Shown: one piece after another, positions 16,330 through 57,784 of the stretch
Layout of the letters: each line of letters opens with the position of its first letter
Numbering within the stretch: the first letter of the stretch is position 1
Source of the DNA: Chloroflexota bacterium
GTDB taxonomy: Bacteria > Chloroflexota > UBA11872 > VXOZ01
Assembly: GCA_965220175.1 (NCBI GenBank)
Contig: OZ244814.1
Coordinates: forward strand, 1,735,045-1,799,044
Direction of reading: 5' to 3'
Length of the DNA: 64,000 nucleotides
Position numbers and translations under genes: made by a program
The notes under the pieces: model-generated
Seen by the model: only the letters and a program-made list of their open reading frames with translations
What the model was told of the DNA's origin: nothing
Databases searched by the model: none

Positions 16330-17193
16330 CTATTCTTCCGCCCCGGCTCCAATCAGAATCTGCACCACATCCGGGGTGCTCTCCAGACTGGCTGCTGCCA
16401 GCAGAGACCGGCCGTCAGCCAATCTGACATTCACGTCCGCACCGGCAGCGACGAGAAACCGGAACGCATCGACATTGCGCCAGCGCATTGCGGCGTACAG
16501 CAGCGGATCGTTGTTGCTGTCGCGCGCGTTCACATCCGCGCCGGCGTCCACGAGTATCCGCAGCGCCTCGGACTTATCCCAGAAAATCGCGGCATGCAGC
16601 AGCGGGTCGTTATTGCTATCGCGTGCGTTTACGTCCGCGCCGGCGGCTACGAGTATGCGCAGCGCCTCATCCCTGTCACGCCAGATCGCCGCGAAGAGTA
16701 GCGGATCGTTTTCGCTGTCGCGCGCGTTCACGTCTGCCCCGGCGTCCACCAGTATTTGCACCTTTTCGGGAGAGGCCCGCCAGACTGCGGTGTACAAATA
16801 CGGATCGCCCTGTTCGTTGCTGGCGTTCACCTCTCTGCCTTCGTTGACAAGCGCCTGCAACCCTTCCGCGCTGACGGAACTCCGCCAAATTGCGGCGTAA
16901 AGCTCGGGATCACCGGCAGGATAGGGCGTGGGCTGCGGCACCGGCGGCAATGTAGGCAGGGGTGCGAGTGTTGGTGTCGGCGACGGAGGCGAAGGCCGTG
17001 AGTCGCGATCTGTCCGCGGTTCGGGCGTCGGTCTGGGTGCTGTTCTTGCAGGCTCTGTGCTGCGGTTCGCAGCTTCCTGAGTATCCGCGGGACGCGCTGC
17101 GGGAGACTCGTCTTCGTAGAGAATGACCAACACGACGATACCAGCAGAGACTATGGCAACTGCAAGCACGAACCCCAAAACGTAGCGAAGCAT
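16330..17193 (-). CDS. membrane-anchored ankyrin-repeat protein
   Basis: N-terminal TM helix, ~60-aa Pro/Thr/Arg-rich linker, then >=6 tandem 33-aa ANK repeats (DPLL(F/H/Y)AAI..DxxEALRILVxAGADVNARD); ATG 17191-17193 with GGAGG RBS preferred over the TTG at 17208. Confidence 0.8.
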   Translation of the reverse strand: MLRYVLGFVLAVAIVSAGIVVLVILYEDESPAARPADTQEAANRSTEPARTAPRPTPEPRTDRDSRPSPPSPTPTLAPLPTLPPVPQPTPYPAGDPELYAAIWRSSVSAEGLQALVNEGREVNASNEQGDPYLYTAVWRASPEKVQILVDAGADVNARDSENDPLLFAAIWRDRDEALRILVAAGADVNARDSNNDPLLHAAIFWDKSEALRILVDAGADVNARDSNNDPLLYAAMRWRNVDAFRFLVAAGADVNVRLADGRSLLAAASLESTPDVVQILIGAGAEE

Positions 17194-28755: not shown

Positions 28756-28788
28756 CCGTCATTCCCGCGAAGGCGGGAATCCATCTTT
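28756..28788. repeat. dispersed palindromic repeat, family 2, copy 1
   Basis: ccgtcattcccgcgaaggcgggaatccatcttt (ATTCCCGC-N4-GCGGGAAT hairpin); second copy at 45267-45299 differing by 1 nt. Confidence 0.5.
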
Positions 28789-45266: not shown

Positions 45267-45299
45267 CCGTCATTCCCGCGAAAGCGGGAATCCATCTTT
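45267..45299. repeat. dispersed palindromic repeat, family 2, copy 2
   Basis: ccgtcattcccgcgaaagcgggaatccatcttt; 32/33 identical to 28756-28788. Confidence 0.5.
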
Positions 45300-52273: not shown

Positions 52274-52349
52274 GCAGATGAACTCCGTGCAAAGAAACGG
52301 AACGGTGCACCTATTCGTGCGAACTCTAAGACCTGCCTTGAGAGTGAAC

Positions 52350-52455
52350 GGCTCTGCTAGATCCGCCCTTCGACCCTTCGACAAGCTCAGGACAGGCAGG
52401 CTCAGGGCGAACAGAATAGGCAAGTCGCCGTTCGTGCTGAGCAAATCTTCTGTCG
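52350..52455. repeat. dispersed REP-like element, family 1, copy 2 (inverted)
   Basis: cccttcgacaagctcagg...ctcagggcgaacag is reverse complement of the 10.03 kb module; followed by gccgttcgtgctgagc...gtcgaagcacgaa inverted repeat. Confidence 0.45.
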
Positions 52456-52713
52456 AAGCACGAATCAGTAATCGAACCGAGCCACAAAAGGCTTCTAGAT
52501 TAAACTAAGTATAGCGGAATGGTCTGCAGAGATTTCTCGTGCGCACGAGCGCCGAGCCGCTAAAGCGATCTACGGTACTCATTTGGGCTCAGAGAGTGCT
52601 TGACATGGGTATCCGTTCATCGTTCGACGGACTCAGGACGAACGGATACCCATTTCGTTAAAGCCTTGTCGAACCCTGAACGGCAAGCGAAGAGAACTTA
52701 CCGCACGCCCTTC

Positions 52714-54126
52714 TTAGACCGCCGCAGGCTGCTCAGCAACCGGACCGTAGCCTTCGGGACGCTCAAGCAGCTTTTCCCCATCGGAGAAGCCGTCGCCCCG
52801 CTCGCCCAGGTAAGTAATGAGCCGGTTGCGCCACAGGGTAACACGGTCGGCATAGGCCGGATCGTTCGCCCGATCGTGAAGTTCCTGGCGATCGTTGGCA
52901 AGGTCGAAGAACTGCTCCTCACCCCGCACCGGATACCAAAGGTACTTCTCCTTGCCGTCGGTGAGAAACTGCACCGCGTTGTCTTTGCTATAGCAAGGCG
53001 AGTGCTCGCCGTGGACGTATGCGCGCCAGGGTTCGCCGCGCGCAGCTTTCAAAACGCTCGTACCGGTAACGGAATCGGGAACGGGCGAGCCGGTGGCCTC
53101 AAGGATCGTCGGCATGACGTCTTGCAGGCCTACCGGATGTTCGAACGTGCCGGACGGCGCATCGACACTACTGGGATACCTTATGACAAACGGGATACGT
53201 GCCGACCCTTCGTACGCGTATGACTTGCGCAGCAGATTGTGGTCGCCCATCATGTCGCCGTGGTCGGCGGTGAAAACGTACATGACATCACCGCCCAACT
53301 CCTGCTGCATTCGTTCAAAGAGGTAGCCAAGCTGATAGTCGATGTGGCTGATACACGCCATGTAGCCCGCGCGCATGCGCTGGAGTTGCTCGTCGGTCAG
53401 CCTTCCGTGCCAAGCGGCGCGCGGCAGACTCGGCTGTGGCACGTTATACCGCTCCGCCCAGTCACCCAGGGGTATATCCGGCAACTCTCGGTTGATGTAC
53501 ATGTCCCAGAAAAACTGCGGTGGGTCGTAGGGCGAGTGCGGGCGTAGGTGCGAGCACCACACAAACACGGGGCGGGTAGGATCACGTTTCTTAATCTGTT
53601 CAATCGTCACGTCCACGGTCCAGTTCGTGGCGTGGTAGCGCTCCTCGTAGGCCCAGGGCCGTCCTAACCAGCCGTTGGCGTCGGAGCCGTGTATGCGCTC
53701 GTGGGCATAGGGGCCAAGCTCCTGGCACAGCCACTCCCAATAGTCGTCGTCGCCCTGGCGTAGATCGTGGGGTATGACGGTATGGAAGCCGTAGAGCTTG
53801 CGGCGTGGGTGCATGTTGCGCCAGCCGACGTTGATGCAGTGGTACCCTTCGGAGGCAAGCACCGCCGCAAGGGTATTCGGCTCATGCCACTCCAATCCGG
53901 AATAGCCGATCAAGCCGCAGTCGTAGCTGCGCTGGCCGCCGTGTAAGCAGCGCCGCGCGCCGGTCGTGGATGGAATCTCCGTGTAGGCGTTGGGAAAGTA
54001 CGCCCCATGCTGCACGAATGCATCGACGTTGGGAGTCTCAACCGCCGGGTGACCGGCAATACTGAGATGATCGCCGCGGTGTTGGTCGGTAGTGAAGAGG
54101 ATGACGTTCGGTCGCGAATCCTTCAT
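52714..54126 (-). CDS. sulfatase-family (alkaline-phosphatase superfamily) hydrolase
   Basis: N-terminal PNVILFTTDQHRGDHLS metal-binding motif of sulfatases. Confidence 0.75.
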   Translation of the reverse strand: MKDSRPNVILFTTDQHRGDHLSIAGHPAVETPNVDAFVQHGAYFPNAYTEIPSTTGARRCLHGGQRSYDCGLIGYSGLEWHEPNTLAAVLASEGYHCINVGWRNMHPRRKLYGFHTVIPHDLRQGDDDYWEWLCQELGPYAHERIHGSDANGWLGRPWAYEERYHATNWTVDVTIEQIKKRDPTRPVFVWCSHLRPHSPYDPPQFFWDMYINRELPDIPLGDWAERYNVPQPSLPRAAWHGRLTDEQLQRMRAGYMACISHIDYQLGYLFERMQQELGGDVMYVFTADHGDMMGDHNLLRKSYAYEGSARIPFVIRYPSSVDAPSGTFEHPVGLQDVMPTILEATGSPVPDSVTGTSVLKAARGEPWRAYVHGEHSPCYSKDNAVQFLTDGKEKYLWYPVRGEEQFFDLANDRQELHDRANDPAYADRVTLWRNRLITYLGERGDGFSDGEKLLERPEGYGPVAEQPAAV

Positions 54127-54234
54127 GCTCTGTGTCCGCCCTTCTGCTCTTGCTTTCTGTTGTCTGCCTAACGAGCTTCCTCGGCTCGGAGTCAGATTGG
54201 GTATGACTGCGAGCTCAACACTGCAGACCGATGC

Positions 54235-54687
54235 TCACCCCGTAACCCAGCGGTTGCTTTCCCGCGAGTAATCGACGAGTTCATCCGATTGGAAAAAGAG
54301 TTCAACTTCCTTCTCCGCGGTATCCGGAGCGTCTGAAGCGTGAATGAGGTTCATGGTGAGATCGAGGGCAAAGTCGCCACGAATCGAGCCGGGCTCAGCT
54401 TCGGTGAACCGCGTGGCCCCCACCAAATTCCGTACGACGGCAATCGCCTCGGGCCCTTCAATGACGGCGCAAACGACGGGAGCGGCGGTGATGAATGCAA
54501 TCAGGTCGCCAAAGAACGGCTTATCACTGTGCACCGCGTAATGGGTTTCGGCGAGAGATCTGTCGACCGACATGAGCTTGAGGCCGACGAGCTTCAGGCC
54601 GCGCTGCTCGAAGCGGCCGAGAATCTCGCCGACGAGCCCGCGTTGCACGCCGTCCGGCTTGATGATGATGAGGGTTCGTTGCGCCAC
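54235..54687 (-). CDS. ndk: nucleoside diphosphate kinase
   Basis: TLIIIKPDGVQRGLVGEI...NLIHASDA (active-site His) ; GTG start with AGGAGAAG RBS. Confidence 0.9.
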   Translation of the reverse strand: MAQRTLIIIKPDGVQRGLVGEILGRFEQRGLKLVGLKLMSVDRSLAETHYAVHSDKPFFGDLIAFITAAPVVCAVIEGPEAIAVVRNLVGATRFTEAEPGSIRGDFALDLTMNLIHASDAPDTAEKEVELFFQSDELVDYSRESNRWVTG

Positions 54688-54776
54688 TGTTTTGTCTTCT
54701 CCTGTCTGGGTAACTGTTGTCTGGGTATCTATTGGTCGTTGCTTTGATCCGTCACTGCCATGAAGATTGCCTATCT

Positions 54777-54915
54777 ACCGTTCGCCCTGAGCATTGTCGA
54801 AGGGTGAACGCCGGAGCAAAAGGGTAACACAGCTTTCGGCTCTCCTCTCTCCGTTCGTGCTTCGACAAGGGCTTTCGTAAAGCCCAGGCTTCGCGCAGCC
54901 CTCAGCACGAGCGGA
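54777..54915. repeat. dispersed REP-like element, family 1, copy 3
   Basis: accgttcgccctgagcattgtcgaaggg ... ccgttcgtgcttcgacaagggc ... cgcgcagccctcagcacgagcgg; flanked by ctctctcc / ggagagat inverted ends. Confidence 0.45.
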
Positions 54916-54992
54916 GAGATCCGGCTCTTGTTTTCATCCCTTTTTGTGGCCTGGGCAAGCTCATGGAGGCTACCGCTTTCGCGGGAGTCAGC

Positions 54993-55475
54993 CTATTCCA
55001 CACTCGCTATGATACGCTCCACCAGGTCTGTAGTGCTGTAACCGGACGTAAAGGGCAGAATTCGTACGGTGCCGCCATAAGCTCTGACGACCGCGGCTTC
55101 CACCGGCTCGTCGCTCGCGTAGTCGCCGCCCTTGACATACGTATCGGGTTGCAGATTCTGCAACAGGCGTTCCGCAGTTTCGTCGTCAAATTCCACCACG
55201 TAGTCGACGCACGCCAGCGCCGACAGTACATGCGCTCGGTCTTCGGCCGGCGTAATGGGTCGTGTAGGCCCTTTTAGCGCGCGTACGGACTGATCGCTGT
55301 TTACGGCAACAATCAGGACATCGCCAAGCGCCCGTGCTGCCTCAAGGTAAGCGACATGGCCGCGATGGAGCAAATCGAAGCAGCCATTGGTGAAGACTAC
55401 GGAACGGCCTTGTTGGCGAAACATGCCGAGTCGGTCTACGAGCGCTGATTCAGATTGTATCTTGGATGCCGTCAT
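54993..55475 (-). CDS. D-glycero-beta-D-manno-heptose-1-phosphate adenylyltransferase (RfaE domain II / HldC-like cytidylyltransferase)
   Basis: [19 protein letters not shown] nucleotidyltransferase HxGH motif; ~160 aa. Confidence 0.8.
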
Positions 55476-55485
55476 CACGCGTTGG

Positions 55486-55735
55486 ACCTTGGGCGCCCAC
55501 GAGGGACGCTCGAACTATGGGATCTTGGGCGCCCACGAGGGACGCTCGAACTATGGGATCTTGGGCGCCCACGAGGGACGCCCCTACTATGGGAACCTTG
55601 GGCGCCCACGAGGGACGCGCCTACTATGGGATCTTGGGCGCCCACAAGGGACGCGCCTACTATGGGATCTTGGGCGCCCACGAGGGACGCCCCTACTATG
55701 GGACCTCGGGCGCCCACAAGGGACGCCCCTACAGT
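55486..55735. repeat. 36-bp tandem direct repeat, ~7 copies
   Basis: unit gggcgcccacgagggacgctcgaactatgggatctt; copies 1-2 identical, later copies carry cacgag/cacaag and gctcgaactatgggatc/cccctactatggga(a/c)c variants, one 37-nt unit; no spacers so not CRISPR. Confidence 0.85.
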
Positions 55736-56733
55736 ACTTTGGATGCGAGAACAGCCAGGATTTCAGCGGGAGTGGCCACGGCGGCGCCGAGTTTGCGCAC
55801 GACGACGCTGGCTGCCGCTGCCGCCAGTGTAGCAGCGCGCGGCGGCGGTAAGCCGGCAAGCAGCGCCAGCGTCAGAACGGCTGACACCGTGTCTCCCGCG
55901 CCGGTCGGATCGATTATGCCGCCGTCGCCCAACGCCGGGATATGGTAGGGAGTGGCTCCCGCGGCAAAGAGTGACATGCCCTCGCTGCCGCGCGTGATGA
56001 GCACCACCTGTGTCTGCAGCATTTCGAGCAAGGCATTGCCGGCCTCTTCGAGTTCTTCCCGCGACTCCAAGGTGCGCCCCAGTGTGAACTCCACTTCCGG
56101 TTGGTTCGGCGTAAAGGTGGCGGCACCGGGAAAGCGCGCGAGGTTGCCGTGCGAGTCGACAGTCACCGGCTTTTGCTGTGTTTGCGCGCACTGCAGTACA
56201 GACTCGATGATGGCATCGTCCACCATGCTGATCTCGTAGTCGGCAATGATGATGGCGTCCACCTGGGGAATGCGCGTATCCAAGCCTGCTTTTACCTGCC
56301 GGCAAAGAGCTGCCGGAATAGGCTCTCGTTCGACGCGATCCAAGCGGCAGACTTGCTGCTGCACGGGCTGTTGGTCGCCACCCGCCCAGATGCGGGTCTT
56401 GGTCGAGGTTGCACGGCGCTCGTCCGCGAGCAAGTCGCCGCAGTCAATGCCATCGTCCTCGAGCATCTGCCGCAAGTCACGCCCGATTGCATCATTCCCG
56501 ATCACGCCGGTGACCCAGACCTCGGCGCCGAGCGCACGCGCATTGCGGGCAACGTTGGTGGCGCCGCCGGGAACGAGCTTGCGGTCAACGTACTGCAAGA
56601 CCGGCAATGGTGCCTCGCGGGACATACCGCTCGCGCGCGTGAAGATGTGCTCGTCCGCGACCATGTCACCAATGACGAGCATGCGCTGGGCCGCAAAGCG
56701 TGCCAAGGCGTCTTGCCATGAAGGTATTGTCAC
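55729..56733 (-). CDS. D-glycero-beta-D-manno-heptose-7-phosphate kinase (RfaE domain I / HldA-like, PfkB family)
   Basis: PfkB carbohydrate-kinase fold with C-terminal DPTGAGDT motif; GTG start; stop TAG lies inside last repeat unit. Confidence 0.75.
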   Translation of the reverse strand: MTIPSWQDALARFAAQRMLVIGDMVADEHIFTRASGMSREAPLPVLQYVDRKLVPGGATNVARNARALGAEVWVTGVIGNDAIGRDLRQMLEDDGIDCGDLLADERRATSTKTRIWAGGDQQPVQQQVCRLDRVEREPIPAALCRQVKAGLDTRIPQVDAIIIADYEISMVDDAIIESVLQCAQTQQKPVTVDSHGNLARFPGAATFTPNQPEVEFTLGRTLESREELEEAGNALLEMLQTQVVLITRGSEGMSLFAAGATPYHIPALGDGGIIDPTGAGDTVSAVLTLALLAGLPPPRAATLAAAAASVVVRKLGAAVATPAEILAVLASKVL

Positions 56734-56755
56734 TAGAAATCCCCCGGCGGAGCGG

Positions 56756-57784
56756 TCACGATTTGCCGTTTACCCTATCGTGGCAGTCTTCGCCACATTC
56801 AGCAACAGGAGGACTCTGAAGAAAAGCGGCGACTTCCTCACCGGTCGGCAGCGACGGTTGCGCGCCAAAGCGCCCGACCGTAATCGCGGCGGCCGCCGTT
56901 GCATTGCGGGCTGCGTCCGCGAGCGCCTCGCCACGTGCCAGCGCCGCTGCCAGTGCGCCGACAAAGGAGTCGCCGGCGGCGGTGCCATCAACGGTTGGCA
57001 CACGCCAGGCAGGGACCTGCAGAACACCGTCACTGGAAGCCAGAACGCTGCCTTCTGCGCCAAGCGTAAGTGAGAGTCCATCACGAACTTCGCCAAAAAG
57101 CTCCGCCGCAGCCACTCTTGCTTCAGCTATCGAATCCACTGGCTGGCCGAGCAGGCTGGCGGCTTCCGCTCGGTTTACGACCAGCACGTCCGTTTCTTTC
57201 AGCAACGAGGCGGCCTCCACGGTGCCGGGCGCGGCGTTCAAAATGGTCGTCAGTCTGTACTCGCGTGCCTGTGCGAGGGCCGCTCGCACCGTATCCAATG
57301 GGACTTCCAATTGGCAGACGAGAACGCGGCTCCGCTGAAACAACGTGGCGGCGGCAGCGACATGAGACGGCCTGAGCGCCGCGTTGGCGCCGGGGGCAAC
57401 CGCAATGACGTTGTCGCCGGAATCGTCGACGAGAATGAGAGCCGCGCCGGTTGGCAGCGTTGGGCAAATGGACTCGCCGCCAACGGTCACGCCGTAAGAC
57501 TTGAGATCGTGCAGGCGCTGCTTGCCGAATTCGTCAGCGCCGACGCATCCGAGCAGAGCAGTATGCGCGCCTAAACGGGCCGCTGCTACCGCCTGATTGG
57601 CGCCCTTGCCGCCGCTGATGTGCTGCAAGTCGCCGCCCAGCACGGTTTCGCCCGCCTGGGGGAGCGCCGGGACCGGCACAACCAGGTCCGTGTTGATGCT
57701 CCCAACGACCAACACTTCAAAATGCTGTTGGTTTCTTGCGTTGGGTGTGCAGTCGCCGGATGTGCGTTCGACAGCGGGTGCCAT
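56756..57784 (-). CDS. ribokinase-like PfkB family sugar kinase
   Basis: ISGGKGANQAVAAARLG (ribokinase signature 1) and DTTAAGDSF-like C-terminal motif (DGTAAGDSF). Confidence 0.7.
   Translation of the reverse strand: MAPAVERTSGDCTPNARNQQHFEVLVVGSINTDLVVPVPALPQAGETVLGGDLQHISGGKGANQAVAAARLGAHTALLGCVGADEFGKQRLHDLKSYGVTVGGESICPTLPTGAALILVDDSGDNVIAVAPGANAALRPSHVAAAATLFQRSRVLVCQLEVPLDTVRAALAQAREYRLTTILNAAPGTVEAASLLKETDVLVVNRAEAASLLGQPVDSIAEARVAAAELFGEVRDGLSLTLGAEGSVLASSDGVLQVPAWRVPTVDGTAAGDSFVGALAAALARGEALADAARNATAAAAITVGRFGAQPSLPTGEEVAAFLQSPPVAECGEDCHDRVNGKS

Follow-up and report, generated by a model that had tools for sequence, protein, structure and literature searches.

Why is the interval between two genes for ADP-heptose enzymes occupied by an array of short tandem repeats, how did the array arise, and does it affect the genes on either side? 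These questions are raised by a 64-kb stretch (64,000 nucleotides, referred to here as the window) of contig OZ244814.1 from a Chloroflexota bacterium, in which seven repeat units separate a sugar-phosphate kinase gene from the adenylyltransferase gene hldC. A sequence-only reading of this locus had described the array as replacing the linker between the two halves of a split hldE, and had suggested a contingency or regulatory locus or, alternatively, the scar of a domain fission. We consider it likely that the array is a head-to-tail cluster of GTAG-tagged REP hairpins, with the history of insertion and expansion and the effect on expression that are proposed below.

Seven head-to-tail units tile a 253-nt segment of the minus strand exactly and without gap (Table 1), and the concatenated units are identical to the window sequence. 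The unit lengths in transcription order are 36, 36, 36, 37, 36, 36, and 36 nt, and Tandem Repeats Finder detected 6.9 copies with a period of 36 and 92% matches (positions 55484-55732, score 391). The exact tiling confirmed the seven 36-nt units, one of them with 37 nt, and the point variants that had been noted earlier; the array also lies where it had been placed, in a range that had been drawn a few bases too wide. A 19-nt core, GGGCGCCCACRAGGGACGC, occurs seven times in the array at spacings of 36, 36, 37, 36, 36, and 36 nt, and no copy with three or fewer mismatches was found outside the array in the 64-kb window. From shuffled sequences 0.08 matches were expected, and seven matches were reached in 0 of 100 shuffles.

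The consensus of the units is GTAG-GGGCGTCC-CTYGT-GGGCGCCC-AAGATCCCATA, which corresponds to an unpaired GTAG, an 8-bp GC stem, a 5-nt loop, and a spacer of 11-12 nt. The stem contains one U.G (T.G) wobble and pairs on the minus strand only. All seven units share one orientation on the same strand. Units 1-5 have an intact GTAG, whereas units 6 and 7 show a decayed GTTC in its place and have also lost one stem pair. Units 2 and 5 are identical, units 3 and 4 both carry the variant GGCGCG, and units 6 and 7 both carry GTTCGAGCG. Such variants common to adjacent units are the pattern left by stepwise local duplication. Moreover, a degenerate AAGA, AAGG, or GAGG occurs in every internal spacer, which shows that the duplications included flanking DNA along with the hairpin.

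The array is also crossed by open reading frames of 40-160 aa in both directions (Table 1). Their periodic translations, for example GAHEGRPYYGIL, are by-products of the 36-nt (12-codon) period. These ORFs, including a spurious one at 55475-55717(-), are unfit for gene annotation and are repeat-derived, as is the kinase stop codon.

Table 1 Features of the kinase-hldC junction, further repeats of the window, and inverted core pairs elsewhere. Positions refer to the window unless a locus is named.
Feature	Position	Strand	Remarks
PfkB-family, RfaE-domain-I-like sugar-phosphate kinase ("HldA-like"), 334 aa	55729-56733	-	ORF and profile match
Seven-unit array	55480..55732	-	Unit starts (G of GTAG/GTTC): 55732, 55696, 55660, 55624 (37-nt unit), 55587, 55551, 55515
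First REP core, GTAG + GGGCGTCC-CTTGT-GGGCGCCC	55708..55732	-	TAG 55731-55729 is the kinase stop
Array-crossing ORFs, 40-160 aa	55387-55948	+	
Array-crossing ORFs, 40-160 aa	55450-55859	-	
AAGG, putative Shine-Dalgarno motif	55487..55490	-	8 nt upstream of GTG 55478
RfaE-domain-II/HldC-type heptose-1-phosphate adenylyltransferase, 160-161 aa	54993..55478	-	Start ATG 55475 or GTG 55478
hldC-ndk spacer	54688-54992		305 nt
Hydantoinase-B-like/sulfatase spacer	52330-52700		
Third small hairpin repeat CCGTCATTCCCGCGAAGGCGGGAATCCATCTTT	28756-28788 and 45267-45299		97% identity between the copies
Tandem repeat, 99-nt period	16430-16769		Coding
Ankyrin-repeat protein, 292 aa	16330-17208	-	Pro-rich N-terminal region
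Inverted doublets of the core	L025 668/753 and 1366/1451; L041 5015/5100; L071 6996/7082		Also in L091 and L093

The best profile match of the upstream gene is TIGR02198 rfaE_dom_I with 282 bits, and since this score lies under the model cut-off of 345, the product is labelled "HldA-like". The downstream gene product reached 204 bits on TIGR02199 rfaE_dom_II, over the cut-off of 181.5. As had been described, the two genes are split, are separated by a gap of 250 nt, and differ in reading frame (253 mod 3 = 1). The kinase stop lies inside a repeat unit, as claimed, although this unit is the first and not the last to be transcribed, and the TAG of its GTAG ends the kinase frame. The kinase ends with three variable residues past the conserved ...AEILAVLAS, followed by this REP-supplied stop, and the first hairpin stem begins 1 nt past the stop codon. 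At the other end of the array, the start of the transferase (MTASKI...) is conserved in all relatives. The AAGG motif preceding it is homologous to the GAAGG in front of the overlapping GTG start of REP-free relatives, and probably serves as the ribosome-binding site.

Further repeats were observed in the window. The hldC-ndk spacer is 305 nt long versus 39-50 nt in L122, L125, L126, L128, and L130, and the extra ~250 nt consist of a nest of other short palindromes, among them CTCTCCGCTCGTGCTGAG...GTCGAAGCACGAACGGAGAGAG and GTTCACCCTTCGACAATGCTCAGGGCGAACGG. This nest begins right after ...SVE, supplies the hldC TAG stop, and thereby removes in the window the 14-aa hldC tail of L121, L122, L126, and L128. 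It is also found in L124, and L121 has a different insertion. The same repeat family (CCGTTCGTGCTGAG / CTCAGGACGAACGG, TTGTCGAAGC...) fills the spacer between the hydantoinase-B-like and sulfatase genes. A third small hairpin repeat is present in two copies. The only other strong tandem repeat has a period of 99 nt and encodes 33-aa ankyrin repeats (Table 1).

To compare the junction among relatives, syntenic loci were reached through homologues of the kinase, and clades were defined by a neighbour-joining tree of the kinase gene. The gene order GT4-WecG-ribokinase-kinase-hldC-ndk-sulfatase is conserved across 11 syntenic loci. Four of these, which are outgroups with kinase DNA 71-79% identical to that of the window, contain no REP, and the two ORFs overlap by 26 nt (L130), 14 nt (L131), or 4 nt (L133 and L134). 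In these outgroups the GTG start lies within the end of the kinase gene, in an overlap of the GTGA type, and is preceded at a distance of about 8 nt by a GAAGG motif. This overlap of stop and start suggests translational coupling in the REP-free state. One unit is present at the junction in L122/L123 and in L126/L127, two in L121, three in L124 and in L125, six in L128/L129, and seven in the window, which has the largest array seen. The comparison of copy number among relatives that had been proposed earlier thus yielded a series of 0, 1, 1, 2, 3, 3, 6, and 7 (0 in all four outgroups). At this junction, the REP insertion swapped an overlapping stop and start for a structured spacer of 36-250 nt.

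The REP-bearing lineages form one clade in the kinase tree, and in each of them the REP is located at the junction. Where a single copy is present, the junction has the sequence ...CTG TAG-hairpin-AAGGTYCAGCGC-GTG ATG..., so that the REP lies precisely between the truncated kinase end and the ribosome-binding region of the ancestral state. Lineages with one copy are sister to expanded ones (L126 to L128, and L122 to the window plus L121), and the internal spacers differ between the expansions, being AAGATCCCATA in the window, ATGGTCGTAGC in L124, and RATGTAAC in L125/L128. Taken together, the single clade, the sister pairs, and the differing spacers indicate one insertion followed by at least three independent tandem expansions. 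By the same evidence, each expansion copied the hairpin plus a piece of its flank that includes AAGG. Regardless of copy number, the last unit is followed by the retained AAGG-N8-GTG/ATG initiation region of hldC. In six of the seven REP-bearing lineages the kinase stop is the TAG of GTAG, the exception being L128.

In L128 (3960-4023), the kinase frame does not coincide with the TAG of the first unit. Translation of the kinase therefore continues across this REP (...ECRGVPCGRPM*) as far as a TAA in the spacer, and the REP encodes a C-terminal tail there.

Outside the syntenic loci, an exact-match scan with the 19-nt core, using one genome per species, retrieved at least 120 loci (L001-L120). 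Nearly all of these loci share not only the 19 nt but one and the same 25-mer, GTAGGGGCGTCCCTYGTGGGCGCCC, past which their flanks are unrelated; the complete 36-mer, spacer included, shows no such dispersal, and the spacer is specific to the window array. The sequence-only reading had held that a 36-mer found widely dispersed would point to a generic MITE-like element. This applies to the 25-nt core but not to the entire unit, and a widely dispersed hairpin is essentially what the core is. Among the matches listed, GTAG is conserved in nearly all of the 127 dispersed cores. Single chromosomes harbor up to at least 6 core loci. According to the record titles of the matches listed, the core loci belong to metagenome-assembled genomes (MAGs) of about seven phyla, several of them chromosome-level assemblies: Chloroflexota (many Dehalococcoidia), Latescibacterota (e.g., OZ242358.1 and OZ220733.1), Gemmatimonadota (JAPPJY01), Acidobacteriota (Versatilivorator; OZ253547.1), Armatimonadota (OY781964.1), Bacteroidota, and Omnitrophota, with a Prevotella record (OMVI01) as a further example. 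To judge from the bin names, many of the core-bearing MAGs presumably represent symbionts of marine sponges.

The genomic context of the dispersed cores was assessed in the fetched loci. Cores are depleted inside long ORFs (46% versus a base coverage of 84%), are located downstream of long ORFs in the same orientation more often than antisense to them (29 versus 13), and supply a stop codon in 5 dispersed copies. The same core also takes part in other tandem arrays, with units of 57 nt (7 copies in L112), 95 nt (6.4 copies in L114), and 75 nt (3.5 copies in L037). A search of JGI metagenome contigs for the junction of hairpin and spacer (GGCGCCCAAGRTCCCATAGT) returned a single chance match within an AT-rich coding region. 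No RAYT gene was found by motif regular expressions and tblastn in the window or in 135 loci (about 1 Mb), with an approximate E. coli YafM-like sequence as the probe; one weak match in an rpoB/rpoC region was not credible. Our literature search found no paper on the exact repeat sequence and none on the same GTAG-REP core being shared across phyla. REP families are usually lineage-specific. The identity of the 25-nt core across phyla suggests either that a REP/RAYT system has spread horizontally or that a constraint is shared.

Inverted pairs of the core, about 85 nt apart, were observed in Gemmatimonadota, Latescibacterota, and unclassified MAGs (Table 1). These REPIN-like doublets have conserved extended flanks (...CCTACAAnACCnnACATyCACGAATTGAA), unlike the head-to-tail array of the window. 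In several fetched loci, REP cores are flanked by "GGGAATGACGG" motifs that resemble the third hairpin repeat of the window.

A single unit was predicted to fold at -16.5 to -16.7 kcal/mol. As GGGCGCCC is self-complementary, adjacent units can also pair with each other, and the fold of the entire array surpasses those of shuffled sequences by a moderate margin only (z = -2.8). The fetched loci contain stem subfamilies with compensating changes (GGGCAACC/GGTTGCCC, GGGCGACC/GGTCGCCC, and GGGCACCC/GGGTGCCC). In an alignment of 15 distinct variants, 98% of the cells were paired and 15 cells showed two-sided changes, a level reached in 0 of 500 shuffles. This covariation is convincing only once the subfamily variants from other loci are added, and was weak (1 pair, 2 cells) for the 23 units from the heptose junction alone. 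A scan for sigma-70-like promoters and intrinsic terminators detected none in the array, and local folds of the last units with the hldC start, evaluated for sequestration of the Shine-Dalgarno motif, did not differ from those of shuffled sequences. An Rfam scan of positions 54000-57000 (E ≤ 1) gave no match overlapping the array, and three weak sub-threshold snoRNA/miRNA matches were located away from it.

Based on these data, we propose the following history. Ancestrally, kinase and adenylyltransferase would have been separate cistrons, the kinase stop overlapping the adenylyltransferase start in a GTGA-type arrangement. In the ancestor of one Chloroflexota clade, a single REP hairpin would have landed just upstream of the hldC ribosome-binding site, clipping the last kinase codons and contributing the TAG of its GTAG tag as the new stop. 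This hairpin and about 11 nt of flank would then have been re-duplicated in tandem, independently in several lineages, probably through slippage or unequal recombination and possibly through a RAYT-type transposase. Stable GC hairpins would consequently follow one another along the polycistronic mRNA, starting one base past the kinase stop. By analogy with REP arrays of E. coli, on which the functional part of this proposal rests, the stop/start coupling would be abolished and hldC would be initiated de novo at the retained AAGG-N8-GTG. The hairpins may also impede 3'-to-5' decay, which would stabilise the upstream ribokinase-kinase message, and may attenuate read-through into hldC-ndk. The net outcome would be a raised ratio of upstream to downstream expression, more so with seven units than with one. 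The array does lie at a position where coupling between the two cistrons could change, as the sequence-only reading had pointed out, and by the same analogy a regulatory effect on the coupling of the downstream cistron is plausible.

It is possible, although we favor an effect on expression, that the array is a purely selfish or neutral REP that was amplified locally and leaves the expression of the flanking genes unchanged. Copy number varies freely between 0 and 7 while both flanking proteins are conserved, and units decay: stem-breaking substitutions or other decay affect many units of L124 and L128 as well as units 6 and 7 of the window, which argues against strong selection on every hairpin. 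That spacers of this operon tolerate junk is also suggested by the unrelated cluster of palindromic repeats that some lineages only have between hldC and ndk. However, the first hairpin starts 1 nt past the stop codon and has replaced a start/stop overlap, and going by the behavior of stop-proximal REPs and of REP arrays in E. coli (PMC12306157; 10.64898/2026.03.23.713779) some effect on termination or coupling would be hard to avoid; in addition, nearly all lineages have retained the first unit better than any other. Much of the variation in copy number may nevertheless be simply neutral or selfish. That the repeated expansions (to 2, 3, 3, 6, and 7 copies) were selected, with the array acting as an evolvable "rheostat" for the stoichiometry of ADP-heptose enzymes, appears doubtful to us. 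If this were true, changes in REP copy number would adjust both ADP-heptose enzymes (and ndk) through the mRNA in an adaptive and heritable way, and the array would be more than junk.

The contingency locus of the sequence-only reading, i.e., a phase-variable array that switches or tunes hldC within populations by often gaining and losing 36-nt units, is unlikely. It would agree with the differences in copy number among related lineages, and the identity of units 2 and 5 together with the variants shared by neighbors points to relatively recent duplications. Yet the units have a length of 36-37 nt and a mutual similarity of only about 92%, some of them are decayed, the array is located outside ORFs and not between promoter hexamers, and the AAGG-N8-GTG initiation region is kept at every copy number. 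Furthermore, all observed differences in copy number are between lineages, at the species level, that are 9-19% diverged in kinase-gene DNA; no strain-level pairs are among them.

Descent of the array from a domain fission of HldE, as its scar or as a cryptic or decayed inter-domain linker, is very improbable. Fused HldE does exist in the more distant homologues P0043 and P0044 (510-512 aa, PfkB + CTP_transf_like), and the array sits exactly at the junction of the two domains' genes. In the four closest REP-free relatives, however, the cistrons are already separate and overlapping (by 4-26 nt), with their own GTG start for hldC, so that the split is older than the REP and no linker existed that the array could have replaced. 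The first unit ends the kinase frame with its TAG, the two genes are in different frames, and the unit is a non-coding hairpin that is dispersed in unrelated contexts. Finally, a degenerate CRISPR-like array or an assembly artefact is scarcely conceivable: the 36-nt period and the palindromic core resemble CRISPR repeats superficially, but unique spacers are absent, the 11-12 nt between the hairpins (AAGATCCCATA) are themselves repeated, and the array has no Rfam match, while an artefact is countered by same-site arrays that recur in independent assemblies of relatives, with identical arrays in three assembly pairs (L128 and L129, L122 and L123, L126 and L127), and by the length of 250 nt, which is far below that of long reads.

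As a GTAG-tagged REP cluster in an operon spacer, the array belongs to an ordinary class of elements. The element class, its tandem clustering, the donation of stop codons, and the intercistronic position have all been described already. Mildly new are the series of graded copy numbers at a single junction and the occurrence of an identical core in about seven phyla. A single junction with 0, 1, 2, 3, 6, or 7 hairpins in otherwise syntenic genomes is a clean natural series, which could be used to test, in bacteria other than E. coli, the influence of REP number on the stability of the mRNA, on attenuation, and on translational coupling.

GTAG REPs have been described, in Chloroflexi among others (Di Nocera, De Gregorio & Rocco 2013, PMC3733652). 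In that account, they consist of an unpaired GTAG next to a GC stem of 6-13 bp with a short loop and a G.T/U wobble, are mostly extragenic and located downstream of co-directional or convergent genes, and can provide a TAG stop with their GTAG; clusters arise by tandem reiteration of a singleton together with flanking DNA and are rarely head-to-tail (PMC3733652). All structural features of GTAG-tagged REPs that we tested are present in the window array. It resembles the published GTAG REPs, above all GTAG-23 of Thermomicrobium roseum (Chloroflexi), in its GTAG, GC stem, wobble, position, stop donation, and flank-including clusters, the likeness of the window 25-mer to the 24 published families being one of description (PMC3733652). 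The array differs from most published GTAG REPs in being head-to-tail, and neither the window nor the fetched loci yielded a RAYT.

Other known systems share single traits with the array. REPIN-RAYT systems (Bertels & Rainey 2011, PMC3116915) have short GC hairpins in many copies in common with the dispersed core, which forms inverted doublets at other loci. The junction in the window is without such doublets and without a cognate RAYT in the window or fetched loci. Both a BIME and a REPIN were ruled out for the junction, as all seven units are on the same strand and none is inverted. E. coli REPs within 15 nt of a stop codon cause ribosome stalling and mRNA cleavage, according to Liang, Rudd & Deutscher (2015) as presented in PMC12306157; in these REPs the hairpin directly follows the stop codon on its 3' side, as it does in the window. 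The functional model that we adopted for the window array is REP325 of E. coli, a BIME with 12 hairpins between yjdM and yjdN, which was shown to make the mRNA upstream of it more stable and to act on the downstream gene as an attenuator, the attenuation being partial, length-dependent, and partly Rho-dependent (bioRxiv 10.64898/2026.03.23.713779). The units of REP325 alternate (Y/Z2), whereas those of the window are unidirectional and unrelated in sequence, and a shared function would follow by analogy. In both cases, however, several REP hairpins are located between two co-directional genes of one operon.
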